Positions 10,056 through 26,873 of a stretch of 32,000 nt of DNA are shown in pieces. Location: NCBI RefSeq assembly GCF_000025685.1, contig NC_013967.1:1590001-1622000 (forward strand), written 5' to 3'. The DNA is from Haloferax volcanii DS2. Lineage in GTDB: Archaea > Halobacteriota > Halobacteria > Halobacteriales > Haloferacaceae. Made by a program: the position numbers and the translations under genes. Position 1 is the first letter of the stretch, and the number at the start of each line of letters is the position of its first letter. The notes below the pieces were generated by a model that saw only the letters and a list, made by a program, of their open reading frames with translations, ran no database searches and was not told the origin of the DNA.

Positions 10056-12957
<2,902 letters not shown>

Positions 12958-13032
12958 ATTCATACGCACTGAGACCCGAGAACGGGTCCAGGCGCAAACT
13001 GGATTGCACGGACACATTGGTAAGACGGCCCG

Positions 13033-13073
13033 ACCGATATTGGTATGGCAACGGTTCGATTCCGTTGATCGGT
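13033..13073 (+). ncRNA. tRNA-like (acceptor stem plus T-arm) element directly 5' of 5S rRNA
   Basis: ACCGAT (13033-13038) pairs with ATCGGT (13068-13073). This encloses the T-arm-like AACGG TTCGATT CCGTT. 5S starts 2 nt later. Confidence 0.6.
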
Positions 13074-13074
13074 A

Positions 13075-13196
13075 TTAAGGCGGCCAGAGCGGTGAGGTTC
13101 CACCCGTACCCATCCCGAACACGGAAGTTAAGCTCACCTGCGTTCTGGTCAGTACTGGAGTGAGCGATCCTCTGGGAAATCCAGTTCGCCGCCCCT
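13075..13196 (+). rRNA. rrf: 5S rRNA
   Basis: TTAAGGCGGCC...CCCGTACCCATCCCGAACACGGAAGTTAAGC...GTACTGGAGTG...TCTGGGAAA...TTCGCCGCCCCT, 122 nt. The termini are complementary. Confidence 0.93.
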
Positions 13197-13382
13197 ATTC
13201 ATACTTCACAGAGCCCACTGGACGCGGTGTCCAGTGGGCTTTGTTCATTTTATGCAGAGCGGCACGCACGGCCGCTCGCACACGCATACACAGAGCGACT
13301 GCGTCGGGCAGAGTCTCGAAAACGCCCGACTCAGGTCGCACACCGTCAGGCTTAAGCACAAGACCGGGATACCAGTAACTGC

Positions 13383-13459
13383 GCCAAGGTGGCAGAGTTC
13401 GGCCCAACGCATCCGCCTGCAGAGCGGAACCCCCGCCGGTTCAAATCCGGCCCTTGGCT
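13383..13459 (+). tRNA. tRNA-Cys (anticodon GCA), distal gene of the rRNA operon
   Basis: GCCAAGG...TCCGC CTGCAGA GCGGA...GCCGG TTCAAAT CCGGC CCTTGGC T. The 16S-Ala-23S-5S-Cys order is the classic haloarchaeal arrangement. The D-arm pairing is imperfect by eye. Confidence 0.85.
13449..13459 (+). repeat. Putative attL: last 11 nt of tRNA-Cys (GGCCCTTGGCT)
   Basis: The exact 11-mer recurs at 28737-28747. Confidence 0.55.
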
Positions 13460-13636
13460 CTCACACGTTTCTCTAAAGCCCAAGACGACTACGTCTTGGC
13501 TCGTTTCCTCGCTGATCTCAACTTCTCGGAGTTCAGACAGTGGGATCACGCTGGCGACCAACTCGTTTTGAAACAGAGTTCTTGGAATATTCCGCATACA
13601 CAAAGATTTATTCCGCTAGACGACCGTATTTCAGGT

Positions 13637-14212
13637 ATGGACGACCCGCGTACCGAACTCAAAGCAGATACCGACGAGCGTCGGGACCCGCCGGAGTTCG
13701 ACGATCTCGTCCCTCCCGAAGAACTAGTCGCTGGGGATCGCACTCGGGACGACTTCTTCGATGCCGTGCTCGGACTGGGCAGTCCCGCGACTGTGGGTGA
13801 GATCGCAGATCTCGCGGGACATGGGGTAGACGCTGCCCGTGAATATTTAGAGTGGTTCGAACGCATGGGTATCGTCACGCAGATCACCGATTCTCCTGCG
13901 ACGTACGAACGGAATCAGGAGTACCTGAATTGGCGGCGTGTCCAGCAGCTCCGGAACCAGTACGACGACGAGGAACTCCTCGCCTTCCTTGAAGACGCAG
14001 TGGAGCGTGATGAGTCGTTTGCGGAGAAGTTCGGTGTCGAATCTCCGGATGCGGTAGCGATCGCTGCGCACGCAACTGACACGGATCGTTCTGTCGAGAC
14101 AGTGTGGCGGGAGGTGTCAGCGTGGAAGACGACGCGCCGCCGAATCTCCCTCCTCGAACGGGCATTGCAGACTGACACGGACGGCACTGCCGGGCAGCGC
14201 ACTGTCGCATGA
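13637..14212 (+). CDS. winged-HTH DNA-binding protein (191 aa from the ATG at 13637); antitoxin-like partner
   Basis: SPATVGEIADLAGHGVDAAREYLEWFERMGIV is a TrmB/ArsR-like wHTH. The stop overlaps the next start (ATGA at 14209-14212). The track ORF's extension back to 13454 would overlap tRNA-Cys. Confidence 0.65.
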   Translation: MDDPRTELKADTDERRDPPEFDDLVPPEELVAGDRTRDDFFDAVLGLGSPATVGEIADLAGHGVDAAREYLEWFERMGIVTQITDSPATYERNQEYLNWRRVQQLRNQYDDEELLAFLEDAVERDESFAEKFGVESPDAVAIAAHATDTDRSVETVWREVSAWKTTRRRISLLERALQTDTDGTAGQRTVA

Positions 14213-14640
14213 GCGGCGGAAGGGACGGTGTCAGCGGTGCGCCGATCGACTTCGCCCGTCTGAACGTCGTCGCGGAGCGATTTGCTACCGACGATCGCTC
14301 CACTGAGATCGACATCCAACCAGAATTCGCACCCGATCGCATCGTCTGTCACTACGATTCCGGGTTCTATCCCCAGCGCGTGCAGAGTGCTCGCCTTGAG
14401 ATCGCGTGGCTCGAGAACGGGGACTTCTCGATACACTACCACGAAGAGCACCATGAGGGCGAGTTCGACCATCGATGGGATCGGCATCCCTCAGATCACA
14501 ACACGCGTGACCACGTTCACCCGGGTCCGGACGCACCGACACCCGGCGACGACGCGTCACATCCGGCGGAGTGGCGTGACGTGCTGTCGATGGTTCTCGG
14601 CGAGGTCGAAGCTCGACAACGAGCCTTCTGGACGGAGTGA
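14209..14640 (+). CDS. His-rich small protein, possibly TumE/DUF6516-like toxin (143 aa)
   Basis: The motif IHYHEEHHEGEFDHRWDRHPSDHNTRDHVHPGPD recalls the DUF6516 'hYH...RaDn.pH....PHH.H' pattern. That recall is low-certainty. It is translationally coupled to the wHTH gene. Confidence 0.6.
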   Translation: MSGGRDGVSGAPIDFARLNVVAERFATDDRSTEIDIQPEFAPDRIVCHYDSGFYPQRVQSARLEIAWLENGDFSIHYHEEHHEGEFDHRWDRHPSDHNTRDHVHPGPDAPTPGDDASHPAEWRDVLSMVLGEVEARQRAFWTE

Positions 14641-14647
14641 GTTCGTC

Positions 14648-15157
14648 TCAGATTTTCTCACGTCGTCGTCGCAGACTGTGACGGATCAGCAGGAGAAAGG
14701 TGCACAGTTCGGCCCGTCGCCGAGATTCGACAAAACGAAACACAACGTTGTAATGTCGAGTCCACGTTGAGAGGGTGCCGACCATCTGGTTCGGATGGAT
14801 GTCCCGCCACGCCATACAGCCCCGGTTCTGAAGGAGGGTTTCCCAGGATGTCTCCACGACGACCGCAAGGGGTTGTGGCCACTCGGTGGCCCGACGTAAC
14901 TCGGAACAGAATCGATCTCGCTCCCACGTGAGTGCGGTGAGGAAGTCGTCTCCGGACTTGCGTTCGACTGCGAACCGTGGGTGATAGGTGTCCGATTCCG
15001 GATCGTGCGTACAAGCAGTCGGGACAGCGTAGTCCCCGGTCGAGAGCGTCACGTCGCGCGTCTCTACTGCACACCTCTCGAACGTCCAGGTTCGCTGTTC
15101 GCGGGTATCTCGCAGTATCGTTGAGGGAATAGAACTACCGTGTCGTGTCTCGCCCAT
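14648..15157 (-). CDS. ERCC4 (XPF/Mus81-type) nuclease-domain-only protein (169 aa)
   Basis: The ERCC4 signature GDx(n)ERKx3D is present: VTLSTGDYAV...FAVERKSGDDFLTAL. No HhH or helicase region is attached. Confidence 0.75.
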   Translation of the reverse strand: MGETRHGSSIPSTILRDTREQRTWTFERCAVETRDVTLSTGDYAVPTACTHDPESDTYHPRFAVERKSGDDFLTALTWERDRFCSELRRATEWPQPLAVVVETSWETLLQNRGCMAWRDIHPNQMVGTLSTWTRHYNVVFRFVESRRRAELCTFLLLIRHSLRRRREKI

Positions 15158-15224: not shown

Positions 15225-17207
15225 TCAGAATCCGGCCTTCTCCAGTTCGTCGAGAAACGCCGGTCGGTTCGAGTGTTTGTCTTTCAGGAAATCGACGAAC
15301 TCTTCCAACCGCGCTTCGGGGACCAACCCCTGCATCTCTTCTAAGTGGTCGGCGATATCTCGGTAGTGTCGTCGACCGGTGTCGCCGGCGGCAAACGGGA
15401 CGAGCAGTTCCCGGTAGAGTTCGAAGTATTCGACCGGCGCCGTGGTTGCGACCGGGTCACGGTACTGGCGAACCGACGAGAGGTCTGCGTTCTCTTTCAG
15501 TTCGGCAAACGCTCTTTCGAGGTCGTCGTCGTGGACGTACAGCGCGACGAGGTCCTTTCGATCGTCCCGTTCGAAGTGCCGTTCGAATTCCCCGTAGATC
15601 GATTGCCACTCCTGATCGTCACAGATTGTCTTCAGGTCGTCGTACGCTGCCCACTCCGTGTGGTCAAGAAATAACTGCTTCAGGGTGGCACGGTACTCGT
15701 CCATATCTCGGTCCTCGTAGAGGTCGGCAGCGAGCCAACGGAGCTCACGAGCCGATCGGAACGTATGGATCCCGTCTTCGACGACTTCGATCGCACGGTT
15801 TTCGTTGCCTTCGTCGATCAGTCGTCGGGCGTACTCCTTGCAGAATCGCTTGCTCTCGAGGTAGATTTCCTCGTAGAGTTGCGAGAGGGCGTCTTCGTCG
15901 CCGAGTTCCTCGAGAATGTAGACGTAGGTCGAGAATATCCGCCGCTTCTGGAGTGACGACGATATGTCCGTGTCGGTCGTTCCTGATTTGGTCAGTTCGA
16001 CACGTGCAGTGTGTTTCTCGACGGTCGTCGGTTCATCGACGCGTAACTCCTCGAACGCGTCACCGACGAAGTACTCGAATTGCAGTGTCCCAACAGCCAA
16101 GTGTTCGACGTCGAGCGCTCCACCGGTGAAATCGTCGGTGCTGAGCGGACCATCGGTGAAATCGGATGCGTAGAGAACGTCGTCCGTCCGTTCGGGATGG
16201 TCTGTGGAACCGTCATCTCTCGCTGATCCGTCGGATGTATCGGCGCTGTCTTCAGTTTCATCTCGTCGGTCGTCCGTTTTCGAGGACAACTCACCCGACA
16301 GTACTGCGTCGAGTGTGACTCCGGACACGTGTGCGTCGAGTTGCTCCAGCCAGTATTCGAGGTCCGCGTCCTCCGTGCAGACCGTTCGGAGTGCGCCGTC
16401 GTAGTCGTCGCTGGCGAAGCCGTGGTCTGCCCCGACGAACTCCGCACAGAGATACTGGATGTACAGCTCCTTTCGCTCGTGCTCGAACTCCTGTTCTGCG
16501 ACCGTCTCTGCATATGCCTCGATAGCGCGTTCCAGTTCACGGCCGTAGTGCCCGCTGCTGTCGTCGACTCGGTCCAGATTCTCGCGTATCCCCTCGGAAA
16601 CCGCTCGATAGATATCCGTCGCCGTATCGACGTGGCCCCGTTCTCGATGTGTCTCCGCGAGGTCGGTGTACTGCGAGAAGTCGATGTGTGTGCCGTGTTC
16701 GACCATCCCTCGACGACTGACAGCGTCGTCGAACAGTCGATCGATCTCCTGCTTGTAGTCGTAGACTGTCTTGCCCGTGTCTTCGCCGACGAACGCGACG
16801 AACCGGTCACGGATATCCTGATCCGCCGCAACGATGTCGAGCAGAAACGCTCGGAGGTCCTCGGCTGTCGTCTGATCGACCAGCGATTCGATGTCGACCG
16901 TTTCATTTCGTTCGGGGTCAGTGTCACTCATCGTCTCGGGGTCTCGATCATCGACAGCGAGCAGGACCGCGACGACGTGTTTGCAGTCGCCCGCGTAGTC
17001 GTACGGACAACTGCAACGAGACCGGACCCCATCGTCTACGATATCGATAGCCACGTCGTAGTAGTTGGATCCCCGAACGGTGGCTCTGATTTCGCTGCCG
17101 TCGATATCCAGTTCTTGTATCCGATCTTGGTGATAATAGTTGGCACCACGCTCGAACGACTGTTCCGTACAGAGTGACCGTATTTCGTCGCGAGCCGGGT
17201 AGTCCAT
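15225..17207 (-). CDS. SWIM zinc-finger protein, long form, with an acidic linker and a helical-repeat C-terminal half (660 aa)
   Basis: SWIM CxCx(n)CxH is present: RSRCSCPYDYAGDCKHVVAVLL. The N-terminal ~260 aa are paralogous to the ORF at 23635-24432. The C-terminal half is alpha-helical and repeat-like, in the style of COG4715. Confidence 0.8.
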   Translation of the reverse strand: MDYPARDEIRSLCTEQSFERGANYYHQDRIQELDIDGSEIRATVRGSNYYDVAIDIVDDGVRSRCSCPYDYAGDCKHVVAVLLAVDDRDPETMSDTDPERNETVDIESLVDQTTAEDLRAFLLDIVAADQDIRDRFVAFVGEDTGKTVYDYKQEIDRLFDDAVSRRGMVEHGTHIDFSQYTDLAETHRERGHVDTATDIYRAVSEGIRENLDRVDDSSGHYGRELERAIEAYAETVAEQEFEHERKELYIQYLCAEFVGADHGFASDDYDGALRTVCTEDADLEYWLEQLDAHVSGVTLDAVLSGELSSKTDDRRDETEDSADTSDGSARDDGSTDHPERTDDVLYASDFTDGPLSTDDFTGGALDVEHLAVGTLQFEYFVGDAFEELRVDEPTTVEKHTARVELTKSGTTDTDISSSLQKRRIFSTYVYILEELGDEDALSQLYEEIYLESKRFCKEYARRLIDEGNENRAIEVVEDGIHTFRSARELRWLAADLYEDRDMDEYRATLKQLFLDHTEWAAYDDLKTICDDQEWQSIYGEFERHFERDDRKDLVALYVHDDDLERAFAELKENADLSSVRQYRDPVATTAPVEYFELYRELLVPFAAGDTGRRHYRDIADHLEEMQGLVPEARLEEFVDFLKDKHSNRPAFLDELEKAGF

Positions 17208-17340
17208 GTTTTGTGTGTGTGCCTACTGTGGTACCGACTGAAAACGTGACGCTGTGCCGTCACTGGGTGCTTGGTCGTTATGTCTCTCGGCCAGCGCCCG
17301 ACAGATTGAATCGTCCGACGGTCGTGCGTTCACGTACCGA

Positions 17341-18753
17341 ATGCGGATCGAGTTCGACGAGGGGACGCTCTTGCTCCACGATGCGCCCGAGACAGTTCCA
17401 CACGCAGAGTGGGACGACCGCGTCGATACTCACCGGGCACAGGCCTATCGATACCGGGCACTCCTCAAGTGGGCCGGACAGTGGAGCGATGGCGGTGGCC
17501 AGGCCACCCTCGACAGCGGATTCAGTCACGCTGTCGAAGACGCTGCCAGAGCGTACCCGGACCTCGCTCTGACACCCGCACTCCAGATCGAACCGCGTGA
17601 CTATCAGCAGACTGCACTCGGCTCGTGGGGTGCGCACGACCGACAGGGCACAGTAGTCCTTCCGACCGGCAGCGGGAAGACGTTCCTCGGATTGCAGGCT
17701 ATCGCCGACGCCGGTGTCAGCGCACTCGTCGTCACCCCGACGATCGATCTGATGAACCAGTGGCACGCCACGCTCACTCACGCGTTCGGTGAGCAACTCA
17801 CCGACGAGGTCGGCGTCCTCGGTGGCGGGTGTCACGATATCGGCGCGCCCACAGTCACTACCTACGACAGCGCCTACCGCTATATCGACGAGTACGGCGA
17901 TCGGTTCGGCCTGCTCATCACCGACGAAACCCACCATTTGGCGGCCGAGACGTACCTCCAAATTCCCGAGATGACGCTCGCGCCTTACCGCCTCGGATTG
18001 ACAGCGACCTACGAACGCGCTGACGGGCGAGAGACGCTACTCGAAGACCGTATGGGACCGGTTGTCTACGAGGAAGATGTCGACGCCCTCGCCGGAGATT
18101 TCCTCAGTGAGTACGAGACCATCCAGATGTCCGTCGATCTCACACCAGCGGAACGGACTGAATACGACGAGGAGTACCAGATCTACCGGGACTACGTCGA
18201 TAGTCACGACTTCGACCTCTGGAAAGAACAGGGCTACGCGGAGTTTCTCAAGCGGACGTCCTACGATCCACAGGGGCGACGTGCGCTCGTCGCAAAGCAA
18301 CGGGCCGAGCGCATCGCCCGGACGGCGTCGAAGAAACTCGATACGCTCGACAATCTGCTCAAACGTCACCACGACGATCGCGTCATCGTCTTCACCGCCA
18401 ACAACGACTTCGCCTACGACATCTCCCGGGAGTTCATTCTCCCGTGTATCACGCACCAGACCGACACCGACGAACGCACCGAGATTCTCGACCGGTTCCG
18501 CAGCGGTGAGTACTCCATGCTCGCCACCTCGCAGGTCCTCGACGAGGGCATCGACGTGCCAGCGGCCAACGTCGGCATCATCCTCTCCGGGAGCGCATCG
18601 AAACGACAGTACGCCCAACGACTCGGCCGGATCCTCCGTCCGACAGACGACCGCCAGCCAGCACGGCTCTACGAGATCATCACGACCGACACGATGGAGA
18701 CGTACGTCTCGCAGCGACGACGCGAGGGGGTGAGTAGCAGTGCTGACAGCTGA
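17341..18753 (+). CDS. xpb: archaeal XPB helicase, short canonical form (470 aa from the ATG at 17341)
   Basis: The N-terminus MRIEFDEGTLLL is DRD-like. Also seen: Walker A PTGSGKT, motif II LITDETHH, LTATYERADGRE at the RED-motif position, and motif VI-like QRLGRILR. The gene overlaps the downstream Bax1-like gene. Confidence 0.85.
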   Translation: MRIEFDEGTLLLHDAPETVPHAEWDDRVDTHRAQAYRYRALLKWAGQWSDGGGQATLDSGFSHAVEDAARAYPDLALTPALQIEPRDYQQTALGSWGAHDRQGTVVLPTGSGKTFLGLQAIADAGVSALVVTPTIDLMNQWHATLTHAFGEQLTDEVGVLGGGCHDIGAPTVTTYDSAYRYIDEYGDRFGLLITDETHHLAAETYLQIPEMTLAPYRLGLTATYERADGRETLLEDRMGPVVYEEDVDALAGDFLSEYETIQMSVDLTPAERTEYDEEYQIYRDYVDSHDFDLWKEQGYAEFLKRTSYDPQGRRALVAKQRAERIARTASKKLDTLDNLLKRHHDDRVIVFTANNDFAYDISREFILPCITHQTDTDERTEILDRFRSGEYSMLATSQVLDEGIDVPAANVGIILSGSASKRQYAQRLGRILRPTDDRQPARLYEIITTDTMETYVSQRRREGVSSSADS

Positions 18754-20092
18754 TCTCGCACGGTCGCGAACACGCGACGGCGCAGTCCGTCCTCTGTTCA
18801 TCGACATCTCCGACGAGCAGTACCGAGAGACGGCGGCCACGCTGATAGCGCTGTTCGAGGACCATCTCGGTGAACCGAAGGGAGAACTGGACGACGCCAT
18901 CGACGAACTGACCGTGGCCGATACCGACTACAAGATCGTCCAGGGGCTGGCGAAACTCCTCAGAGACGAGTGCGAGTTCGAGCAACAGGCGGCCGTTGAC
19001 CCACGCGAGATCCGCAAGCGACTGTTCGAGCGAGCCAACGATCGCTACCCGATCGTTCGCCAGCCCACACTCGGCGAAGACACGCAGAAACTGGAAGTCT
19101 ACAGCGCGGTCGCCGACGAGTTGGGCATCTCACTCGAGGAGTGTTACCGGGGTATGTACGCTGATCTGGAGGACAACAAACGGCTCGTCCGGTTCGGCGA
19201 CCAGTCGGTGCGCGATGACAGCGACGGACAGGAGTCCACGACGACAACGACGAAACTGACGGGAAATAGCAAGCAGGCGTACGATCAGCGCGACCAGACG
19301 GTCGACTGGCTGCTGGCTCGCTACAACCTCGCGCTGGCACAGGCCGTGCTCTACGACGCCTCGAAGATGCACTTTCGGGTGTGGGAGCACTTCGGAACGG
19401 TGTTCAGTTACATGAAGCTGTTCGGATTGATGCACCGGATCTACCCCATCGACGAGGACGGCAACCGCGTCGCAAGCACGGACGTGGCAGCGGGCTACGA
19501 GGCGGAACTCGACGGGCCAGTCTCGCTGTTTCGGCAATCACAAAAGTACGGCATCCGGATGGCGAACTTCCTGCCCGCGCTCCCGCTGTGTGACCGCTGG
19601 GAGATGCGCGCGGAGATTCTCGACGAGGGGTCGGCCGGCGACACCAAACAGTTCACACTCGACTACACTGATGGGCTCGTCTCCCACTACAGCACCGGCC
19701 AGCGGTTCGACAGCGACGTCGAGCGAACGCTCGCCCGAAAGTGGGAGCGGTCGACCACAGAGTGGGACCTCCAGCGCGAAGACGATGTGTTCGATCTCGG
19801 CTCCGAAGTGATGATCCCCGATTTCGCCATCGAACATCCCGACGGACGGCGGGCAATCATGGAGATCGTCGGGTTCTGGACGCCGGAGTACCTGGCGTCG
19901 AAACTGGCGAAGATACGGCAGGTCGAGACCCACAACTTCGTGTTGGCGGTCTCGGAACGACTGGACTGTTCCGACGAGGACTTCGGGGACGTTGCGGATC
20001 GCGTACTGTGGTTCAAAACCGGGATGCACGTCTACGACGTGGTCGAACTGGCCGAGGAGTACGCCTCTCCGGTCGAAACAGACCCCGACTGA
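18740..20092 (+). CDS. bax1: Bax1 (DUF790) nuclease, partner of XPB (450 aa, GTG start)
   Basis: The N-terminus LTADLARSRTRDGAVRPLF is typical of DUF790. The C-terminal PD-(D/E)xK-like core is MIPDFAIEH...MEIVGFWTPEYL. There is a 14-nt overlap with xpb. Confidence 0.75.
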   Translation: MLTADLARSRTRDGAVRPLFIDISDEQYRETAATLIALFEDHLGEPKGELDDAIDELTVADTDYKIVQGLAKLLRDECEFEQQAAVDPREIRKRLFERANDRYPIVRQPTLGEDTQKLEVYSAVADELGISLEECYRGMYADLEDNKRLVRFGDQSVRDDSDGQESTTTTTKLTGNSKQAYDQRDQTVDWLLARYNLALAQAVLYDASKMHFRVWEHFGTVFSYMKLFGLMHRIYPIDEDGNRVASTDVAAGYEAELDGPVSLFRQSQKYGIRMANFLPALPLCDRWEMRAEILDEGSAGDTKQFTLDYTDGLVSHYSTGQRFDSDVERTLARKWERSTTEWDLQREDDVFDLGSEVMIPDFAIEHPDGRRAIMEIVGFWTPEYLASKLAKIRQVETHNFVLAVSERLDCSDEDFGDVADRVLWFKTGMHVYDVVELAEEYASPVETDPD

Positions 20093-20099
20093 TCGGCAC

Positions 20100-20468
20100 T
20101 CAGCCCAAGCGGCCGCCGTCGCCGTTCCAGTAGTGCCAGTCATCGACTGCCTCCCGGGTATCCTGATCTACGTCGAGCACTTCGAGTTGTGACAACGGGA
20201 CACCGAATTCCCTGTCCTTCCACTCCACGAGGACGAACATCTCACGACTGCTGACGACTTCGTCCGTCATTCCGACGACAGGCACTTCTTCGCCCTCACG
20301 CAGCGGCGAGATCGTTCGCTCCTCGATACACCGCGCCTGAAACGGGAACGTCATCTCGCGTTCGAGGTGATAGCACCAGCTGATCGCTTGCTCGTCGGCG
20401 GTGTACGCGTCGGTGAGTATCTCCCTCCGAATGCGTTTGTCCCGCTCTTCGTCTGTCTCCCGTGTCAT
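20100..20468 (-). CDS. small acidic hypothetical protein (122 aa), last gene of the minus-strand cluster
   Basis: ATGA start/stop overlap with the upstream gene at 20465-20468. The C-terminal motif is VPLSQLEVLDVDQDTREAVDDWHYW. No family is assigned with confidence. Confidence 0.6.
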   Translation of the reverse strand: MTRETDEERDKRIRREILTDAYTADEQAISWCYHLEREMTFPFQARCIEERTISPLREGEEVPVVGMTDEVVSSREMFVLVEWKDREFGVPLSQLEVLDVDQDTREAVDDWHYWNGDGGRLG

Positions 20469-21235
20469 GGTCGTTTCTGCTTGACGATTGCGGCCGTGTC
20501 GGTCGACGTGATCACGTCGCCGTCGAGCACCTCGTCGATTTCGTCTGGTTCGTAGACATCCTTGACGATGCAGTAGTAATGCGAGGGCGTCCCGAAGTCG
20601 TAGACGAGACTGAGTCTGTCACCCTCTCGAAGTCTGGCCCGCTCGGCGACATCCGCAATCGTCATCTCGCCCGCTTTCGTGTACGTCCGGTCGCCTGCTT
20701 CCTCGTACTGGCGGTCAGGAAGCACGTTGAGACTGGAATCCAGATACTCGTCTTCGAGGCCGTACATCCGGAGGTGGAAATCGTCGAGCGTCGAGAACCG
20801 GCACACGAGTCTGTCCAGTTCCGCCATCGTCGTCTCCGGTCTCACGACGATATCGTACCACTCCTCCCGCGCACGCCCTTTCTGCTTCCACCGGAGCCGA
20901 TACCCGACAGTCCCGATCTGCTCGGACAGGTCGTCAGCATCCTGCTCTTTCCCCACTGCTTCACGCGTGTTCGACCAGCAATACGAGCAGATCTCGTCAG
21001 GTGCATCGCCTTCGAAGCCCGCCTTGTTGATGTCGTGGTGGGCGGCAAACTCCGACAACGAGACGTGCTGCGGACGCGGGTGGCGGTTCCCTCGACTACA
21101 CATCATCTCCCCGGGACCTCCAATGCCGAGCGAGAAGCGAGAGTCCGTCTCCGATTGGTCGGCGTCCGTATCGATGATGTGCGCGACGGTTCCGGTTCCG
21201 ATCTCGATCACGAATCGGTCGGTTGGCTCGCTCAT
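20465..21235 (-). CDS. MM3350-like / pRiA4b ORF-3-like (PF07929-type) protein with a Cys-containing N-terminal extension (256 aa)
   Basis: YRLRWKQ...EWYDIVVRPETTMAELDRLVCRFSTLDDFHLRMY and LSLVYDFGTPSHYYCIV match the two hallmark blocks of the family (Y.l.V.L..iWR.i.v....L..LH..I...fgW...HLh.F and Y.YDFGD.W.H.i). Confidence 0.65.
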   Translation of the reverse strand: MSEPTDRFVIEIGTGTVAHIIDTDADQSETDSRFSLGIGGPGEMMCSRGNRHPRPQHVSLSEFAAHHDINKAGFEGDAPDEICSYCWSNTREAVGKEQDADDLSEQIGTVGYRLRWKQKGRAREEWYDIVVRPETTMAELDRLVCRFSTLDDFHLRMYGLEDEYLDSSLNVLPDRQYEEAGDRTYTKAGEMTIADVAERARLREGDRLSLVYDFGTPSHYYCIVKDVYEPDEIDEVLDGDVITSTDTAAIVKQKRP

Positions 21236-21241
21236 CGTTGC

Positions 21242-21874
21242 TCACCGGTACTGGATGTAGATGCCATGGTCGCGATACAGGTCGTGGAACGCGACGAACC
21301 GCTGTCGGGAGGCCGCTTTCGGTTCGTCTGGCTCTACTCGATGCTCGTGTTCTTCGAGAAGGTGGGTTTTCTCCTCGCCGGGGAACGGAAACGAGACGCC
21401 CGAGGTTGTAGTAAACTCGTCGTACCGAACGGGTCTGAAAAACAGCACTGTCCCCGGCTCCGCGGTTCGGCTGAGGTTGATATCCAGCAGCGTGTGTTCT
21501 TCGCGGCCGTCGAGCAGATCGGTTACCGTCAGACGGGGGTCTGAGTCGCTGATGGACTCGACCTCGAACAGCGAGGGGTCGGCGTCGACGGTGGCTTCGA
21601 GAATGTCCCGTTCGGTTTCGCTCTCCCAGCGCTCCGCTTCGAGGTATCGCTCCGCCGCAGTGGTCCCGTCCCGGTGGTATTCGTACAGCGCGAACTCGAA
21701 GTGGGCCGCCATCTGGGATTCGAACTCGTAGGCCAGGTTCAGCCCGTCGAATTCGATGTCCAGCTCGGACGCGGTTTCTACGATCAGTTCCCGGTCAGAG
21801 TACGCCTCGAGGATGTCGCTGTTCAATTGCGTCCCGACTTCCCGATAGGTCTTGTACTGGTCGGTGTCGGTCAC
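21242..21874 (-). CDS. hypothetical acidic protein (210 aa)
   Basis: Clean ORF, co-directional, only 6 nt from the next gene. No motif recognised. Confidence 0.6.
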   Translation of the reverse strand: MTDTDQYKTYREVGTQLNSDILEAYSDRELIVETASELDIEFDGLNLAYEFESQMAAHFEFALYEYHRDGTTAAERYLEAERWESETERDILEATVDADPSLFEVESISDSDPRLTVTDLLDGREEHTLLDINLSRTAEPGTVLFFRPVRYDEFTTTSGVSFPFPGEEKTHLLEEHEHRVEPDEPKAASRQRFVAFHDLYRDHGIYIQYR

Positions 21875-21933
21875 TACGAGAGTGTATCATCTGGGCGGTA
21901 CCAGTATCTTGTGGCGCCGGACGTACAGTGGGA

Positions 21934-22920
21934 TTACAGATCCATATCGGCAAACGTCCATTCCTCTCCCAGTTGTCGGTGGAACCCCTCGGATTCGATC
22001 GTGTTCCGCAACTGCGATCTGACTGTCTCGTCGAACTCGAACCGGTCGTTCAATTCATCGCGCATGTCCCAGTAACGAGGGACCTTCGGAGCGGAATCGC
22101 GGTCGACCTCGGACAGGATCGACGCCAGCAGGTATCGATCCTCGTAGTCGATCCGCTCGTCACTCAGCAACGCATCCATCAAGTCGGCTGCAGCGTGCTG
22201 ATCGGCGTAGAACGCATGCGGGAGCACGCCCCGAACCCAGAATAGTTCCTCGGTAACAGCATCCTGGAGTTGCTCTTCGACCGAGTGCTCGGGATAGCCG
22301 ATTCCCCATCCGTACGTGAACGATTCTTCCCAACTCGTGTCTTTATTTGAATCCCAGAACGAACCGAGATACGCCAGCGCCTCGGCGGGGACTGCCCCGA
22401 CGCCGTCGCGCCGTCGCGTCCGGACGACGTGGCGTCCGACTGCGTTCTCGATGACCGGGCTCACGAAGGGTTCGTCGTCGCTCTCACGCGAATATGCGTC
22501 GATAAGATCTGTGAGAAACGGCCATCCTTCACGCGTAGCGATTTCGTCGAGCGCCTCTGCTGCCGGTTCGTAAAACGCCCAGAATATCCCGCGATACGTG
22601 TCGTCGTTCTCGGTTTGGTGGTATTCCTGAAGTTCTCGTTCGTAGTGAGCGAGCATCTGGAATGCGGCGTCAGCGTCCCCTTTCGCAGCCGCTTCGAGAT
22701 TGGTTTTCAACGTTCCACTCGCGGCTTCCAGCCCTCGTTTCTCGCGCTCTTGATTCCGCCGCTCCATGTCGGCGTCGAGAGCGTCCGAGATCGAATCGAG
22801 GAAACTGTCGAACGACGACAGCGGGTTCGACTCCGCTGGCTCTTCAGCAGGACAGTCGTGTAGACGCAGGCGACTCAACGTAGTGAAACTCTCACCGCAG
22901 GCATCGCACTCGTGTGGCAT
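21934..22920 (-). CDS. hypothetical protein with an N-terminal C2H2/C2HC-type zinc finger (328 aa)
   Basis: N-terminus MPHECDACGESFTTLSRLRLHDC (Cx2Cx12HxC). The rest is acidic and helical with no recognised domain. Confidence 0.65.
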   Translation of the reverse strand: MPHECDACGESFTTLSRLRLHDCPAEEPAESNPLSSFDSFLDSISDALDADMERRNQEREKRGLEAASGTLKTNLEAAAKGDADAAFQMLAHYERELQEYHQTENDDTYRGIFWAFYEPAAEALDEIATREGWPFLTDLIDAYSRESDDEPFVSPVIENAVGRHVVRTRRRDGVGAVPAEALAYLGSFWDSNKDTSWEESFTYGWGIGYPEHSVEEQLQDAVTEELFWVRGVLPHAFYADQHAAADLMDALLSDERIDYEDRYLLASILSEVDRDSAPKVPRYWDMRDELNDRFEFDETVRSQLRNTIESEGFHRQLGEEWTFADMDL

Positions 22921-22995
22921 CGTTCGTATTCGTCTGGACGAGGGGGAGACACATCTACGTTCGGGGCTGTTCTGGCTGTCTCGAACGCGCAGATA

Positions 22996-23553
22996 TTACT
23001 CGTCGAGATCAGGGTATTGAGACGGTGCTGTGCCTTGCTCGTCGACGACGACGGGATCACCATCCATCGATCCCGTTCGCGTGTCTTGCAGTTCGATGTA
23101 GTGTTCCCAGCTGTCGCCCATGTCGAACGTGTAGGAGAGCGCGCCCAGATCTTCCGGATCGAGTTCGTCGATCGTCGTCTCAGCGGCGTTGCCTTCCATC
23201 GGTGGGTTCGACTGGAGTTCGCGGAACCGTTCTTTGGCTTCCTCGGACGCGTCGTCCGGCACGGCCTGCTCGATGAAGCGATCGATCTCTTCGTCGTCCA
23301 TTGTGCGCCAGCTCGGACCGCCATCGTAGAGCATCGGATGGACGTAGCTCCGGAGCGCGATGCCGTTGTCATCGCGTGTGATGAACTCGTAGGCGTGGCT
23401 CTCCCAGCGATCGAACGCCTGGAAGATCGCCTCGTGGAACGTAGCGAGCGTGTGTGACCCGTCGATCTCGAGGTCGTGCCAGACCTCCTCGTCGGGTTCG
23501 AACCCCAGCGGTGGATGCGGCTGGAGCCAGACGCGGAACACGTAGGTCGTCAT
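22996..23553 (-). CDS. MM3350-like / pRiA4b ORF-3-like protein (185 aa)
   Basis: YVFRVWL...EVWHDLEIDGSHTLATFHEAIFQAFDRWESHAYEF and LSYTFDMGDSWEHYIEL are close to the family consensus. Confidence 0.75.
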   Translation of the reverse strand: MTTYVFRVWLQPHPPLGFEPDEEVWHDLEIDGSHTLATFHEAIFQAFDRWESHAYEFITRDDNGIALRSYVHPMLYDGGPSWRTMDDEEIDRFIEQAVPDDASEEAKERFRELQSNPPMEGNAAETTIDELDPEDLGALSYTFDMGDSWEHYIELQDTRTGSMDGDPVVVDEQGTAPSQYPDLDE

Positions 23554-23634
23554 GCCTCGTCTAACGAGGGTCAGTGTTGTAGATTTTTCGCGTAGACAAT
23601 AGATATCCGCTGATGAATCGATTCGCTGACTTCC

Positions 23635-24432
23635 TCACTCGTATCGCTCCTCCAGATCGTCGAGTGCGCGCCGGAACTGCTCGTCGTTGATCCGCGGCTC
23701 TGCCGTTGCCCGCGCCTCAAGCACGCCAGCGTACGTGTCGAACTCTTCGGGAGTCGGATTGGTCGCGAGGACGCAGTCGGCGTAGCCGTCGAGTGCGGTC
23801 TGGATCGCCTTCGCGTAGTGGTCGTAGGCACCGTCGATCCAGTTGTATTTCTCGTCGATCTCCTCGAACACCGCTCGGTAGACGGTCGCAGCGGCCAGAT
23901 ACCGCTCGCGGTCACGGTACTGCTCGGCGATCTCCAAAAACCGGGAGAAGTCGATGGCCTCGAACACGACCGGGTCGGCGTGTTGCTCGAACAACTGCGC
24001 GATTTCCTCGCGGTACTCCTCGACCGATCTGTGGTCGTCGCCAAAGCGTGCGAGAAACTGCTCGCGCAACTCCGGATGTTCGGCGAGGGCGTCACGGGCG
24101 AACCCACGCAGGTCCTCGGCCGACACGTCGTCGATGACTGCCTCGACACGCTCGCTCTCGTCCTGTGGCGGGCTGGCGGCGATGTCCAGCAGTACTGCGA
24201 CGACGTGCTTGCAGTCGCCGCCACCGTCGTACGGACAGGTACACCGCGCATCGATACTGCGCCCGCCGAACTCGACAGTCACGTCGTACAACTTCGAACC
24301 GCTGATGGTGGCCGTAACGAGTTCGCCAAATCGGTCGAGTTGCTGAATGCGTCCCTCGTCACGGTAGTTGACTCCGCGTTCGAACACCGCATCGGTGCTT
24401 CTGTTCTTGACCCTTTCCCTATCGATGTTCAT
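23635..24432 (-). CDS. SWIM zinc-finger protein, short form (265 aa from the ATG at 24432)
   Basis: ARCTCPYDGGGDCKHVVAVLL is a SWIM motif. The protein is collinear with the N-terminal part of the 660-aa SWIM protein. It lies 32 nt downstream of the helicase gene. Confidence 0.8.
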   Translation of the reverse strand: MNIDRERVKNRSTDAVFERGVNYRDEGRIQQLDRFGELVTATISGSKLYDVTVEFGGRSIDARCTCPYDGGGDCKHVVAVLLDIAASPPQDESERVEAVIDDVSAEDLRGFARDALAEHPELREQFLARFGDDHRSVEEYREEIAQLFEQHADPVVFEAIDFSRFLEIAEQYRDRERYLAAATVYRAVFEEIDEKYNWIDGAYDHYAKAIQTALDGYADCVLATNPTPEEFDTYAGVLEARATAEPRINDEQFRRALDDLEERYE

Positions 24433-24464: not shown

Positions 24465-26873
24465 TTACGGTGTCGAATCGGCGGCCTGCCGGCTCGGATC
24501 GGCCAGCGCCATCGTGAGCGTCGCCGCGAGGCGTTTGTCGAGCGGTTCGTTCGCTCGGCCACAGTGCGGTGATTGAATACACGCCGGACAGCCGTCGGAA
24601 CAGCCACAATCGGCGAGCAGTTCCCACGTGTGCTGGAAGAGTCCCTCGATGTGGTCGTATCCGTTGCGGGCGAGTCCGACACCACCGCGGTAACTGTCGT
24701 ACATGAATAGCGCGCTCGTCTCGGTCTGTGGGTGTTCGGCCGTCGAGACGCTTCCAACGTCACGCCGGTCACAAAGGATGACCAGCGGGAATGTGGCGAC
24801 GAGGGCGTGCTGGACGGCGTGGAGGCCACCCTCGAACGACCCGGACATCGTCTGCATCAGGCTTTCCAGTCCCGGTGGGAGCGTCACGTACAGTGCACGG
24901 GTCGAGAGCGTCGTTTCGGGCAGCTTGAGTGCCTCCTCGGTCATGATCTCACCAGTTCGGTGGTCGCGTCGCTGGAAGCCGGTGACCTGCTTCCGTCGCG
25001 TCACGTCCGCGAAGTGAACGGTCACGTCGTCGCGGGTCGCCAGTGGCTTGGTAGCGCTGTCCTCCTCGATAGTCATCGACTCCTCGTACTGCACGCGCGT
25101 CTGGTGGTCGCTGTCCGTTTCGGCGAGCCACGCCACGTCGCGGTCTAGGTCGAGTGACTGGACTTCGTAGTTCTGCCCCTGATGGTGGTAGATCGCACCT
25201 GGATGTACGTCCCGCAGTGCCGCGTTGAGCGGCAACTTCCCGAGTTCGTCAGTCGCTCCCCCTCGAACCCGGAGGGTGACCATGCGTTCTGTGATGGTTC
25301 GGAGCCCCTGTTCGTACGGATTCACCGTTCGTCCGCTGGCGGTGCGTCGCCATTCGAGTCCTTGATCTGTCTGTCGCCGGGTCAATTCGCCGTCGTTTGT
25401 GAGGGTACTGACGATGTCGGGGAAAGTAGAACCGAAATACGCCTCGTCGGCGGTTCGGAGCGGTCCTTCCATGGCCGCGGCGTGTGTATGCAGTTTCAGG
25501 AGATGCGAATTCGAGGGATTGGCGACGGCACGCTCGGGCGTCTGCTCGAACAGTTCGTTAGGATGCTTGATAACGTACTGGTCGAGTTGATCCTCGCTGG
25601 CGACGAGCGCGACGAGGCTCGGGTCGGTCCCACGGCCAGCGCGGCCCGCGCGCTGGAACGTTGCCATCTGTGTTCCAGGGTACCCGTCTAACAGGACGGC
25701 GTCGAGGCTGCCGATGTCGACGCCGAGTTCCAGCGCGCTCGTGCTCCAGACGCCGGCACAGTCCCCGGAGTGCAGTGCAGTCTCGATTGTCGCCCGCCGG
25801 TCATCGCGCAGTCCTGCGTGGTACGCAGTTACGCTCTGGGCGATGTCGGCCCTCCCGCGCTCTGCGAGTGTATCGCTGCTGATGGTGGCGTACCGCTCTG
25901 CCGTCTGCCTCGCGCGCGTGAACGCCACTGTCTGATACCCCTGCATCACGAGGTCGACGAACAGTCGCATGGTTTCCCCGTGGTTGGAGCGGCGCTGTCC
26001 ACCACCGGCCGGTGCATCGCCCTCGTCGTATTCCGGTGGTTGCCAGAACAGCCAGTGTGTCGGACCCGTTTCACTGGTGTCCTCGTCGACGAGTTCGAAC
26101 GAGTCGGTCGGTTGGCCGGCGATCGTCGCTGCGTGCTCCCGGGGATTGCCGATCGTCGCGGAACAGCACACGAACTGCGGGTCGGCACCGAGACGGTCAC
26201 AGATCCGCGCCAGCCGGCGGCAGACGAGACCGACGTGACTGCCGAAGACACCGCGGTACTCGTGGACTTCGTCGACGACGACGAGTTCCAACGACTCGAA
26301 GAACGCTCGCCAGAGGTCGCCCGCGTGACTGAGCAGTCCACAGTGGAGCATATCCGGCGTCGTCAAGACGATGGACGGGTCTTCGTCACGTGCCTGCTGG
26401 CGCTCGTCCGAAGAGAGCGAGCCTGTGTACTGAGTCACGGAGAGATCGTCGAACGGTGCAGCGAAATCAGACAGCGTCGTCTCCTGGTCGTTGATCAGCG
26501 CGACCTGCGGACCGATATACAGCGTCCGTCCGTCGTACTTGTGAGCGCGCTCGATGGCGGGAATCGTGTACGCGAGGCTCTTTCCGCTTGCTGTCGGCGT
26601 CGCGAGGACGACGTTCTGCCCGTTGCGAACCGCTTCGATGGCGTCGGTCTGGTGTGCGTAGAGTCCGTCGATGCCCCGGTTAGCAAGGAGGTCTGCGAGC
26701 CGGCGCTCCATCTCACAGGATCGAGTGATGGGCCTACGAGCGGGAATCTCCCGCTGGAACTGGATCTGATCGCGGTAGTACTCGCGGTTCTGTACCCACT
26801 CGACGAACTCGTTCACTACTCCGTGGATACTGCGTGCCCGCATATAGGGATATGGCCCTCGACTTGTCGCCAT
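24465..26873 (-). CDS. COG1205-type DEAD/DEAH (DEVH) SF2 helicase with a C-terminal DUF1998/MZB Cys cluster (MrfA/Hrq1-like, 802 aa)
   Basis: Motifs seen: Walker A ATPTASGKS, motif II VVVDEVHEY, CSATIGNP and motif VI QRAGRAGRG. The C-terminus is DCGCSDGCPACIQSPHCGRANEPLDK. Confidence 0.85.
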   Translation of the reverse strand: MATSRGPYPYMRARSIHGVVNEFVEWVQNREYYRDQIQFQREIPARRPITRSCEMERRLADLLANRGIDGLYAHQTDAIEAVRNGQNVVLATPTASGKSLAYTIPAIERAHKYDGRTLYIGPQVALINDQETTLSDFAAPFDDLSVTQYTGSLSSDERQQARDEDPSIVLTTPDMLHCGLLSHAGDLWRAFFESLELVVVDEVHEYRGVFGSHVGLVCRRLARICDRLGADPQFVCCSATIGNPREHAATIAGQPTDSFELVDEDTSETGPTHWLFWQPPEYDEGDAPAGGGQRRSNHGETMRLFVDLVMQGYQTVAFTRARQTAERYATISSDTLAERGRADIAQSVTAYHAGLRDDRRATIETALHSGDCAGVWSTSALELGVDIGSLDAVLLDGYPGTQMATFQRAGRAGRGTDPSLVALVASEDQLDQYVIKHPNELFEQTPERAVANPSNSHLLKLHTHAAAMEGPLRTADEAYFGSTFPDIVSTLTNDGELTRRQTDQGLEWRRTASGRTVNPYEQGLRTITERMVTLRVRGGATDELGKLPLNAALRDVHPGAIYHHQGQNYEVQSLDLDRDVAWLAETDSDHQTRVQYEESMTIEEDSATKPLATRDDVTVHFADVTRRKQVTGFQRRDHRTGEIMTEEALKLPETTLSTRALYVTLPPGLESLMQTMSGSFEGGLHAVQHALVATFPLVILCDRRDVGSVSTAEHPQTETSALFMYDSYRGGVGLARNGYDHIEGLFQHTWELLADCGCSDGCPACIQSPHCGRANEPLDKRLAATLTMALADPSRQAADSTP

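Follow-up and report, generated by a model that had tools for sequence, protein, structure and literature searches.

In 2002, Makarova, Aravind and Koonin reportedly described SWIM proteins of bacteria that are either paired with SWI2/SNF2 ATPases or fused to them. In the archaeal XPB-Bax1 pair, a protein with XPB_DRD and a helicase core is encoded ahead of an overlapping DUF790/Bax1 gene. YprA-type MZB helicases are central to the DISARM, Druantia, Dpd and ARMADA systems; SWIM is nowhere mentioned in a 2025 survey that covered about 52,000 YprA helicases and that places architectures like that of the helicase reported here in a repair-type branch without conserved context. The window analysed here, a stretch of 32,000 nt of the Haloferax volcanii DS2 genome, encodes a long and a short SWIM protein, each beside a different SF2 helicase, as a preliminary description of this DNA had noticed: XPB-like with Bax1 in one case, YprA/MrfA-type (COG1205) in the other. 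As in the SWIM-SNF2 pairs, the gene of a protein with a CxCxnCxH SWIM finger neighbours that of an SF2 helicase, but neither helicase is of the SNF2 type. The pairing of SWIM proteins with these helicases is undescribed, as the same description had supposed. The genes form a block of about 15 kb in the order DUF7342-p143, ERCC4-long SWIM facing XPB-Bax1, CcbP-p256-(further genes)-short SWIM-YprA/MrfA-like helicase, and DUF7983, with the following features:

13383..13460, + strand: tRNA-Cys, closely following the rRNA operon and bounding the block on the left
13637..14212, + strand: winged-helix protein (DUF7342); ORF open from 13454, within the tRNA, likely start ATG 13637
14209..14640, + strand: p143, 4-nt overlap with the DUF7342 stop
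14648..15157, - strand: nuclease with an ERCC4 domain, small (169 aa), following the long SWIM gene after 67 nt
15225..17207, - strand: long SWIM protein, 660 aa (N-module, acidic insert, C-terminal solenoid)
15228-15959, - strand: its TPR/HAT-like C-terminal solenoid, residues 417-660, with TGRRHYR and RPAFLDEL motifs
15960-16316, - strand: its insert, residues 298-416, acidic and mostly disordered, with a family-specific conserved segment at 338-402
16449-17207, - strand: its N-module, residues 1 to about 253, finger C65-x-C67-x7-C75-x-H77
17341..18753, + strand: XPB-like helicase, 470 aa, from M30 of an ORF opening at 17254
18740..20092, + strand: Bax1 (DUF790) nuclease, 450 aa, 14-nt overlap with the XPB stop
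20100..20468, - strand: p122, CcbP-like (Calci_bind_CcbP, E = 4e-34), always after p256
20465..21235, - strand: p256, 256 aa, weak PRiA4_ORF3-like match
21242..21874, - strand: p210, variable block member
21934..22920, - strand: p328, N-terminal C2H2-like finger, variable block member
22996..23553, - strand: p185, PRiA4_ORF3-like (E = 1.8e-15), between short SWIM and p328
23635..24432, - strand: short SWIM protein, 265 aa, N-module only, start ATG at 24432
24465..26873, - strand: YprA/MrfA-family SF2 helicase (COG1205), 802 aa, with DEAD, Helicase_C, WH and MZB/DUF1998 domains
27657..28628, + strand: p323 (phrog_35116, E = 6e-142; DUF7983 in relatives), bounding the block on the right

The XPB-like helicase (XPB_DRD, ResIII and ERCC3_RAD25_C domains; GSGKT and DETH motifs) is transcribed divergently from the long SWIM gene across a 133-nt spacer, and both it and Bax1 miss the NCBIfam equivalog cut-offs (189 vs 610 and 185 vs 500, respectively). 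A second, more canonical XPB is encoded in the same window. The YprA/MrfA-like helicase has a Walker A motif (ASGKS), a DEVH box and a cluster of Cys residues at its C-terminus; its gene precedes short SWIM on the same strand, with 32 nt between them. No catalytic domain was found by Pfam or NCBIfam in either SWIM protein.

BLASTP aligned residues 6-236 of the long with 5-221 of the short protein (86/234 identities, 37%; 59% positives; E = 1e-45), and all sequence blocks from which paralogy had originally been proposed were present in this alignment, their order unchanged (FERG.NY, RIQ.LD, CPYD..GDCKHVVAVLL, AEDLR.F, R..F.A..G.D, Y..EI..LF, IDFS, AE..R.R, YRAV.E.I.E and A...YA..V). Comparison of the family profiles by hhalign (113 short vs 111 long sequences) gave a probability of 100% and E = 1.5e-47 over 235 columns, pairing residues 4-238 of the short with 5-253 of the long protein. 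Similarity confined to the finger of about 25 aa would have spoken against paralogy; the Pfam SWIM match itself is limited to residues 51-85 (long) and 49-83 (short). However, after removal of the finger and everything N-terminal of it, the helical parts alone still aligned (34% over 140 aa, E = 3e-22), and paralogy therefore stands. Sixteen columns were invariant among 112 members of both families, several of them outside the finger (R19, G20, Y23, L108, F111 and A187). At the nucleotide level, similarity was left only at the finger (59 nt, 80% identity, 16960-17018 vs 24188-24246). Judged by these alignments, the two proteins are true, ancient paralogues with a common N-terminal module of about 240 residues. 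The proposal that the short protein equals the N-terminal 260 or so residues of the long one was right about the N-terminal match and too generous about its length: the shared part covers about 235-250 residues, and nothing in the long protein corresponds with confidence to the final 27 or so residues of the short one.

In the shared module, a small sheet and a CxCx7CxH zinc finger are combined with a bundle of eight helices. In the short protein, residues 1-86 form a helix, a 4-strand sheet and the SWIM helix, with the finger at C64-x-C66-x7-C74-x-H76, and residues 92-264 form the bundle. AF2 models of each protein alone reached a pLDDT of 89 for the short (disorder at 89-103) and 79 for the long form (disorder at 298-416), and the long model matched TPR/HAT scaffolds in a structure search. 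A family profile search recovered 12,081 proteins at E<=1e-3, the best 150 of which were mostly 530-610 aa long. This widespread 'SWIM zinc finger family protein' group of about 550 aa (SWIM plus TPR-like, partly Pfam DUF6880) resembles the long SWIM protein at both ends, sharing the N-module, the C-terminal solenoid and the motifs GR..Y and RPA(F/L)L.EL. Among 149 representatives, 137 matched the N-part and 118 the C-part of the long protein, and their Pfam content was SWIM, TPR and DUF6880 only; the long SWIM protein itself scored 15.4 bits against DUF6880, below the threshold of 27.3. The haloarchaeal long family differs by its additional acidic insert, about 120 residues long, with a conserved 60-residue segment that is absent from the relatives of about 550 aa; the short protein entirely lacks the C-domain. 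The long form (SWIM plus helical N-module plus TPR/HAT-like C-domain) is the ancestral architecture, common to thousands of such bacterial and archaeal relatives, and the short form arose when one old truncation left nothing but the module. All short forms are monophyletic (100% bootstrap), including a divergent plasmid subclade, and since they constitute one old clade, the duplication is neither recent nor local.

Pairing with helicases is asymmetric: one helicase lineage is never found without its SWIM partner, whereas SWIM often occurs without a helicase. Short SWIM came after the island-type YprA-like helicase in 19/19 loci, with a gap of 22-32 nt, but after a paralogous helicase (50-59% identical to the island type) in 0/46. 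Seen from the short SWIM gene, the upstream helicase was intact in 5, a remnant in 4 and absent in 20 of 29 loci, while short SWIM is under purifying selection (dN/dS about 0.12, 0.11-0.13). The long SWIM gene faces XPB-Bax1 in 10/22 loci and has no XPB nearby in 9/22; the complete set of ERCC4, long SWIM, XPB and Bax1 occurs in 8 loci, ERCC4 accompanying the other three in most canonical blocks, and XPB-Bax1 pairs at 77-79% identity lacked any SWIM in 4/5 loci.

Long and short SWIM lay within one locus of at most 20 kb in 13 of 35 short-SWIM loci, and in one of the relatives (L038) the block order is identical at 91-99% identity. The XPB-like helicase is 94% identical to its counterparts in both Halorubrum tibetense and Halorhabdus tiamatea, and the long SWIM protein 87-88% identical to those of both Halorubrum and Halorhabdus. 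The GC content of the block is 0.60 vs 0.66-0.67 in the flanks. Both SWIM genes belong to one mosaic accessory block that is common to distant haloarchaeal genera and moves horizontally among Halobacteria.

We consider it most likely that both SWIM proteins are non-catalytic adaptors for helicase-nuclease modules; the full reading, in which these old paralogues come from a non-catalytic family of SWIM plus helical repeats and each serves a helicase(-nuclease) set within one block, we hold tentatively, at a little below even confidence. The block carries two such sets, ERCC4-long SWIM facing XPB-Bax1 and YprA/MrfA-like helicase-short SWIM-(variable genes)-p256-CcbP-like, and each SWIM protein would act as the binding or recruitment adaptor of its own set. 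The zinc module may contact DNA or a partner, and the solenoid and conserved disordered segment of the long protein may add a docking surface. The island-type helicase would depend on short SWIM, which would have a further, helicase-independent role. Several points speak against adaptors: the adjacency could be mere co-transfer in an island, an intact and selected short SWIM gene has no intact helicase in 24/29 loci, long SWIM often lacks a nearby XPB and XPB-Bax1 at 77-79% identity usually lacks SWIM, the bacterial relatives are not linked to helicases, and the short forms on plasmids are paired with a wHTH and a small protein instead.

A somewhat unlikely alternative is an accessory DNA-repair cluster, in which bulky lesions or cross-links would be dealt with by XPB-Bax1, the MrfA-like helicase and the ERCC4 nuclease, with the SWIM proteins as damage- or partner-binding cofactors, loosely analogous to SWS1/ZSWIM7 in recombination. 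All four enzymes come from repair families, the YprA/MrfA-like helicase resembling B. subtilis YprA (6ZNP) over its full length (E = 3.6e-121) with the architecture of the repair-type branch, and XPB-Bax1 at 77-79% identity also occurs in ordinary chromosomal contexts. Such a role fits poorly with an accessory, horizontally exchanged block whose genes are often decayed, with the more canonical XPB of the same window, and with the lack of an MrfB-like exonuclease (domain and PADLOC searches of the window revealed neither an MrfB exonuclease nor a methyltransferase, a PLD nuclease or a homologue of DruH). Nor does the wider SWIM family show linkage to repair genes among 59 neighbours of bacterial relatives.

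The preliminary description had instead seen two independent, defence-like modular systems, each with a conserved SWIM core and an exchangeable helicase effector. Its modular part is borne out by the 19/19 tie and by the varied C-termini with which the N-module occurs (a TPR/HAT-like domain, an unrelated one in PADLOC PDC-S62, or no C-terminal part at all), its independence is not: the paralogues travel in one conserved block. A SWIM sensor with a helicase effector attacking invading DNA would suit the N-module held in common with the PADLOC candidate PDC-S62, the constant presence of short SWIM behind the island-type helicase, the company that YprA-type helicases keep in known defence systems, the patchy distribution and frequent gene decay of the block, and its neighbours in relatives (toxin-antitoxin genes, TnpB, an integrase or GmrSD), and Cas or Wadjet genes adjoin some bacterial SWIM relatives. 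We nevertheless regard it as unlikely. The helicase is dispensable, being absent or decayed in 24/29 short-SWIM loci while SWIM is still selected, the long protein faces XPB in 10/22 loci, and helicases made up only 2/59 neighbours of the bacterial relatives. PADLOC matches were partial, with no known system matched whole and no methyltransferase; PDC-S62 is itself a mere candidate that matches in the N-module only, the helicase resembles stand-alone YprA/MrfA throughout, and none of the viral contigs searched carries the module.

It is likewise improbable that the SWIM proteins act apart from helicases, as a regulatory, toxin-antitoxin-like or mobile-element maintenance module beside which the helicases merely hitch-hike. 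Their partners could then be the winged-helix DUF7342 protein with p143/p150, or p256 with the CcbP-like protein. Plasmids pNRC200 and pHM100 carry wHTH-p150-SWIM operons with overlapping stops and starts and without a helicase, whose first two genes are homologous to DUF7342 and p143; a p143 homologue (L169) matches Pfam TumE, and in two loci (L016 and L040) short or long SWIM comes directly after the same pair, DUF7342-c30. Moreover, p256, the steadiest downstream companion of the window-type short SWIM gene, and the CcbP-like gene join it more often than the helicase does (p185 is a variable passenger present in few relatives), and relatives at 65-71% identity lie among CetZ, TraG-like and DUF7344 genes. 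Such a module leaves unexplained the strict helicase tie and the recurrent ERCC4-long SWIM/XPB-Bax1 quartet with its constant spacing. That the short gene is a decaying fragment of the long one, as its N-terminal likeness and real deletion hybrids at two loci (L041 and L012) might suggest, is wholly implausible and refuted by 687 homologues (the best 120 listed nearly all 265-269 aa and from many genera), the low dN/dS, monophyly and a compact, confidently predicted fold.

Returning to adaptors as the preferred reading, several known proteins offer comparisons. The sole significant PDB match of the short model was ZSWIM8, a eukaryotic Cullin-RING substrate receptor (E = 5.8e-4), in which a finger is likewise followed by helical repeats, there serving protein recognition; with a TM-score of only 0.25 and 16% identity, and no BC-box, Cullin context or ubiquitin system here, the likeness supports the architecture, not the function. 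Both window proteins weakly match the N-terminal SWIM region of DpdE in PADLOC (E about 1e-4, residues 12-86), but this likeness ends at the finger, whereas the unit shared here comprises finger and helical bundle. The unvalidated candidate defence gene PDC-S62 matches the whole N-module (long 6-229 to profile 11-231, E = 1.3e-23; short E = 4.9e-15), while profile positions of about 232-566 are unmatched by the long, the short and a 567-aa haloarchaeal relative, and a bacterial relative of about 600 aa did not match the profile. The XPB-Bax1 genes repeat the archaeal pair, from which they differ by the flanking divergent SWIM gene and ERCC4 nuclease and by their mobile block. The second helicase corresponds to MrfA/YprA, the mitomycin repair helicase of B. 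subtilis, including its MZB zinc domain. Among the defence helicases of the YprA family (DruE with DruH, DrmAB, DpdJ and ArmC), Druantia III offers a parallel for its tie to short SWIM, as there too a YprA-type helicase, DruE, is bound up with a single small and uncharacterised protein that is not an enzyme, DruH.

The two SWIM proteins of the window, a long one of 660 aa and a short one of 265 aa, are paralogues built around a reusable N-terminal module, as the preliminary description had read them. BLASTP aligns 234 residues of the two (E=1e-45), 37% of them identical and 59% similar, and all the conserved blocks that had been picked out by eye recur in this alignment in unchanged order. The similarity is not limited to the zinc finger, a restriction that had been named beforehand as refuting the relationship: after everything through the SWIM finger had been cut off both proteins, the helical remainder alone still aligned at 34% over 140 residues (E=3e-22). 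The proposed profile-profile comparison, run with 113 short and 111 long members, gave a probability of 100% (E=1.5e-47) and paired residues 4-238 of the short with 5-253 of the long protein. The claim that the N-terminal ~260 aa are shared therefore stands as to the sharing and falls short as to the extent, the common part (hereafter the N-module, i.e., SWIM finger plus helical region) comprising about 240-250 residues. Both proteins exceed the cut-off of Pfam SWIM PF04434 (27.4 bits for the long and 32.2 for the short form; cut-off 19.6), and besides this one zinc finger each Pfam returned nothing above threshold. The CxCxnCxH zinc signatures read CSCPYDYAGDCKH at residues 65-77 of the long and CTCPYDGGGDCKH at residues 64-76 of the short protein; the finger cysteines, G72 and K75 are invariant and H76 nearly so among 112 family members, and some of the columns invariant in both SWIM families lie well outside the finger.

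Both genes lie in a gene set of ~15 kb, here called the block, whose main features and flanking RNA genes are as follows (window positions; p plus number denotes a protein by its length in aa):
8192-13197: rRNA operon (16S 8192-9664, tRNA-Ala 9762-9833, 23S 10050-12962, 5S 13076-13197)
13383-13460, plus strand: tRNA-Cys, following the complete rRNA operon and adjoining the block
13637-14212, plus strand: DUF7342 winged-helix gene (likely extent)
14209-14640, plus strand: p143
14648-15157, minus strand: ERCC4 nuclease, 169 aa, just downstream of the long SWIM gene
15225-17207, minus strand: long SWIM protein, 660 aa, Pfam SWIM finger at residues 51-85
17341-18753, plus strand: XPB-like helicase, divergent from long SWIM
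18740-20092, plus strand: Bax1/DUF790 nuclease, overlapping the XPB-like gene by 14 nt and likewise divergent from long SWIM
23635-24432, minus strand: short SWIM protein, 265 aa, ATG at 24432, Pfam SWIM finger at residues 49-83
24465-26873, minus strand: YprA/MrfA-type helicase with MZB zinc domain, first gene of a seven-gene array
27657-28628, plus strand: p323, full-length match to phrog_35116 (E=6e-142), Pfam DUF7983 in relatives

Confident AlphaFold2 models (pLDDT: short 89, long 79) show the N-module opening with a helix, a four-stranded sheet and the SWIM helix, which together take up residues 1-86; a bundle of eight helices comes next. In the long protein, this is succeeded by further helices, a disordered acidic segment (residues 298-416, window 15960-16316) and a helical solenoid of 240 residues. 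The sole significant solved-structure match of the short model is ZSWIM8 (Foldseek E=5.8e-4, probability 1.00, TM-score only 0.25), a substrate receptor built of SWIM and helical repeats. The long model resembles TPR/HAT scaffolds, and a PDB sequence search with the long-family profile yielded no relative. Neither protein carries a catalytic signature. Within the acidic segment, a 60-residue core (338-402; RTDDVLYASDFTDGPL..DDFTGG..H.AVG.L..FVGDAF) is kept only in the ~650-aa family and is missing from the ~550-aa relatives; AlphaFold predicts it with low confidence, and it is a candidate for a docking motif that folds on binding.

An exhaustive profile search recovered 12,081 proteins at E<=1e-3; lengths of 530-610 aa predominate among the best 150 listed. 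The long SWIM protein belongs to this ~550-aa SWIM plus TPR-like family, the short one corresponding to the N-module only. Among 149 representatives, the N-part of the long protein was matched by 137 and its C-part (residues 401-660) by 118, an example being the representative relative P0243 (7.7e-88). Long SWIM therefore retains an ancestral, widespread two-domain architecture, to which a haloarchaeal insert has been added. The Pfam content of the ~550-aa relatives is restricted to SWIM, TPR and DUF6880 (PF21810). The last of these is matched by 7 of 87 relatives at E<=0.001, and long SWIM stays outside it with 15.4 bits vs a threshold of 27.3 (E=0.0094, residues 393-492). In a bootstrapped neighbor-joining (distance) tree of the module, all short forms fall into one clade (100% bootstrap) and the long family into a separate one (95%); a sister relation of the two was not supported (43%). 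The short clade also takes in a second group, 42-45% identical, which is carried by plasmids of haloarchaea (pNRC200 and pHM100, for example). A single short clade means one old truncation and not a recent local duplicate. Recent tandem duplication is ruled out by the identity of only 37% and the age of this clade, although tandem arrangements occur in two comparison loci (L001, L030), and the idea that the short gene arose as a pseudogene or fragment is ruled out by conserved length, a dN/dS of ~0.12 and monophyly. Both families are widespread in Halobacteria, many contigs carrying both: the short one has 687 homologs, the best 120 of which are nearly all 265-269 aa long, and the long one 164 of about 640-690 aa.

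In the window, the two paralogues stand beside two helicase families, XPB-like and YprA/MrfA-type, just as first described. The YprA-like helicase opens a co-directional array of seven minus-strand genes running from 26873 down to 20100, in which it is followed by short SWIM, p185 (PRiA4_ORF3-like), p328, p210, p256 (weakly PRiA4_ORF3-like) and p122 (CcbP-like). p328 (21934-22920, minus strand) has an N-terminal C2H2-like zinc finger, MPHECDACGESFTTLSRLRLHDC, with weak matches to eukaryotic C2H2 fingers only, and no family was detectable in the rest of it. PDB searches with p256, p328 and the ERCC4 nuclease gave nothing informative. The ~5-kb ORF-free stretch (8-13 kb) and its lower GC are explained by the rRNA operon. 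Just upstream of the latter lie genes for Orc1/Cdc6 (4707-5912), a regulator of the FilR1/HVO_A0261 type (6084-6869) and a TATA-binding protein (6955-7602). The window also encodes another XPB paralogue (721 aa; 526-2691, minus strand), which has a long acidic extension at its N-terminus and no Bax1 gene beside it; it scores 374 bits against NCBIfam XPB vs 189 bits for the XPB-like protein of the block.

A scan of species-representative genomes, with every window protein mapped onto the hits, provided 78 loci. The gene order of the window is DUF7983, then helicase-shortSWIM-...-p256-CcbP, then Bax1-XPB divergent from longSWIM-ERCC4, then p143-DUF7342; it was met again in Halapricum (at 91-99% identity), in Halorubrum, Haloarcula, Salinibaculum and Natronorubrum, and in metagenome contigs. 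The block is a mosaic: short and long genes stand in tandem (L001, L030) or as short-p256-long (L008, L019), XPB-Bax1 faces the short instead of the long gene in L020, and deletion hybrids join a short N-part to a long C-part (L041 10001-10730, L012 12108-12479). In L170 (3582-5589) the long gene is split by a 447-aa insertion; in L005 (8446-9962) the YprA-like helicase is broken into five frames with the downstream short SWIM intact, and helicase remnants occur in L006, L019 and L034. The XPB-like protein is 94% identical to its counterparts in both Halorubrum and Halorhabdus, long SWIM 87-88% to both, and the GC of the block is 0.60 vs 0.66-0.67 in the flanks. Equal similarity to two genera together with the low GC points to horizontal spread of the SWIM/helicase block. 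The block begins immediately past tRNA-Cys. An integrated element with att repeats at this tRNA was rejected, as within the window its 3′ end is not repeated and there is no integrase. A viral origin is likewise dismissed: neither SWIM protein nor 7 of the 8 other block proteins scanned matched PHROGs (p323 being the sole match; XPB, Bax1, ERCC4 and the helicase lay outside the scan), no IMG/VR contig carried the N-module, and phage SWIM matches were remote only. DUF7983 was also seen near XPB-Bax1 in loci without SWIM genes (L164, L166, L167). A short SWIM subgroup of 65-71% identity, mostly from Halorubrum (L022-L026, L029, L036), is found beside CetZ tubulin, a ~1200-aa TraG/TrwB-like ATPase and DUF7344, with none of the block genes of the window.

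SWIM proteins and helicases are coupled asymmetrically: short SWIM is needed by a dedicated lineage of YprA-like helicases, which it does not itself need. At the 29 short-SWIM loci for which at least 2.5 kb upstream could be read, there were 5 intact YprA-like helicases and 4 remnants, the other 20 loci having none; the dN/dS of short SWIM was equally low in the three situations (0.11 with the helicase, 0.13 without it and 0.12 beside remnants). Starting from the helicase in 80 metagenome loci, we found short SWIM directly after the lineage of the window helicase (>=75% identity; island-type) in 19/19 evaluable loci, one of them truncated, vs 0/46 for the paralogous lineage of 50-59% identity. 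Of 22 long-SWIM loci, 10 have a divergent XPB within 5 kb, 3 have it at another place in the locus and 9 lack it. Sampling from XPB recovered the full block at >=83% identity (L168-L170); at 77-79%, the divergent position is taken in L164 by another SWIM relative, of 567 aa, and four loci have no SWIM. The p143 homolog of L169 matches Pfam TumE. Helicases made up only 2 of the 59 neighbors of the bacterial relatives (Anaerolineae, Caldilineae, Poribacteria, others; mostly ~590 aa); a few of these neighbors are Cas or Wadjet genes, and no conserved partner and no family beyond pairs emerged among them. In an Anaerolineaceae MAG (L056 1913-4068), a 590-aa SWIM relative is directly followed by a CcbP-like ORF 50% identical to p122 (HMM E=7e-43); as the only such partner among the bacterial loci, it reflects an ancient link or a cross-domain transfer. 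On plasmids pNRC200 and pHM100 (L082 and L083, both 8037-9822), an operon without helicase encodes a DUF7342-like wHTH protein, the p143-like p150 and, as its last gene, a sequence-divergent short SWIM of 273 aa. Stop and start codons overlap from gene to gene, and the surroundings of these operons contain VapC toxins, IS elements and TnpB. Two independent modular helicase-effector systems were not borne out by these data. Both paralogues are part of a single co-transferred block, and helicases are facultative for SWIM.

Most parsimonious is a mechanism in which both SWIM proteins serve as non-catalytic adaptors, a reading we hold to be quite possible without calling it probable. The zinc and helical N-module would bind DNA or a partner, and in the long protein XPB-Bax1 and ERCC4 would find additional docking surface on the solenoid and the conserved disordered segment. 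The partner of short SWIM would be the YprA-like helicase where present and otherwise something else, perhaps p256 and the CcbP-like protein or the wHTH/p143 pair. Homology, fold class, the history of the architectures, linkage statistics and selection are shown by the data; physical contact between SWIM proteins and helicases, and the process in which the block acts, we infer. More ambitious, and in our estimate rather unlikely, is an obligate two-component machine of short SWIM and the island-type helicase, with long SWIM docking XPB-Bax1 and ERCC4 via its disordered segment and solenoid and the SWIM modules supplying target or partner recognition, which would make the block a new haloarchaeal two-helicase nucleic-acid surveillance system for defence or repair. 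Were it true, it would assign a first function to an uncharacterised family of SWIM plus TPR proteins with more than 10,000 members. A role in repair is suggested because all block enzymes come from repair families and the helicase resembles stand-alone MrfA over its full length. A defence role is suggested by the mobile, decaying, island-like character of the block, by the prominent place that YprA-type helicases have in the Druantia, DISARM, Dpd and ARMADA systems, and by the N-module shared with the PADLOC candidate PDC-S62, a match that is, however, limited to this module.

If the adaptor idea is true, it would offer a first functional handle on the unstudied SWIM plus TPR family, add a new partner class for YprA/MrfA helicases, now central to prokaryotic immunity, and tie archaeal XPB-Bax1, the biological role of which is still debated, to a dedicated accessory factor; if it fails, the block still documents a set of repair-like genes that moves horizontally among Halobacteria. 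It also presents natural experiments, as the same ~240-residue module exists with and without the C-domain, and one helicase lineage never occurs without a module that many genomes keep under selection after helicase loss. The strict dependence of helicase on SWIM is a clear testable handle.

That SWIM fingers occur beside SF2 helicases in genomes is a long-known pattern still in want of an explanation. Their pairing with SNF2 ATPases, reportedly described in 2002, differs from the situation here, where the neighbors are XPB-like and YprA-like and SNF2-rel_dom appears only in the distant XPB (526-2691). For the combination of SWIM with XPB-Bax1 or YprA/MrfA helicases, full-text literature searches gave no description; searches for SWIM with DUF1998, PDC-S62, COG4715/DUF6880 or anti-phage returned nothing relevant, and the word SWIM is absent from a 2025 survey of about 52,000 YprA helicases. 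PADLOC reported a DpdE finger match to the window SWIM proteins. Matches to the 566-position PDC-S62 profile, whether from the long, the short, the plasmid or the 567-aa relatives, are confined to positions 9-231, i.e., the N-module, so the window proteins are not members; the representative bacterial relative P0320 did not match it. DISARM, Druantia, Dpd and ARMADA are represented by partial helicase-core PADLOC matches only (SngC, BrxHI, DruE, DpdF, DrmA), the system partners (DrmB/DrmC/methylase, DruH, Dpd biosynthesis, BrxHII-like plus PglX-like) being unmatched. The window helicase is a YprA/MrfA family member (DEAD 1.1e-28, Helicase_C, WHD_HRQ1, MZB 2.6e-20) with the MZB Cys cluster CGCSDGCPACIQSPHC, and B. 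subtilis YprA (6ZNP) matches its residues 45-768 with E=3.6e-121. It differs from the MrfAB module, as a scan of 10 window ORFs revealed no MrfB-type 3′-5′ exonuclease and short SWIM lies directly downstream. The XPB-Bax1 pair is of the known type (XPB_DRD 1.7e-14, ERCC3_RAD25_C 4.6e-22, DUF790 2.2e-132), scoring below the NCBIfam equivalog cut-offs. The proposed pair of short SWIM and island-type helicase would be analogous to DruH-DruE of Druantia III.
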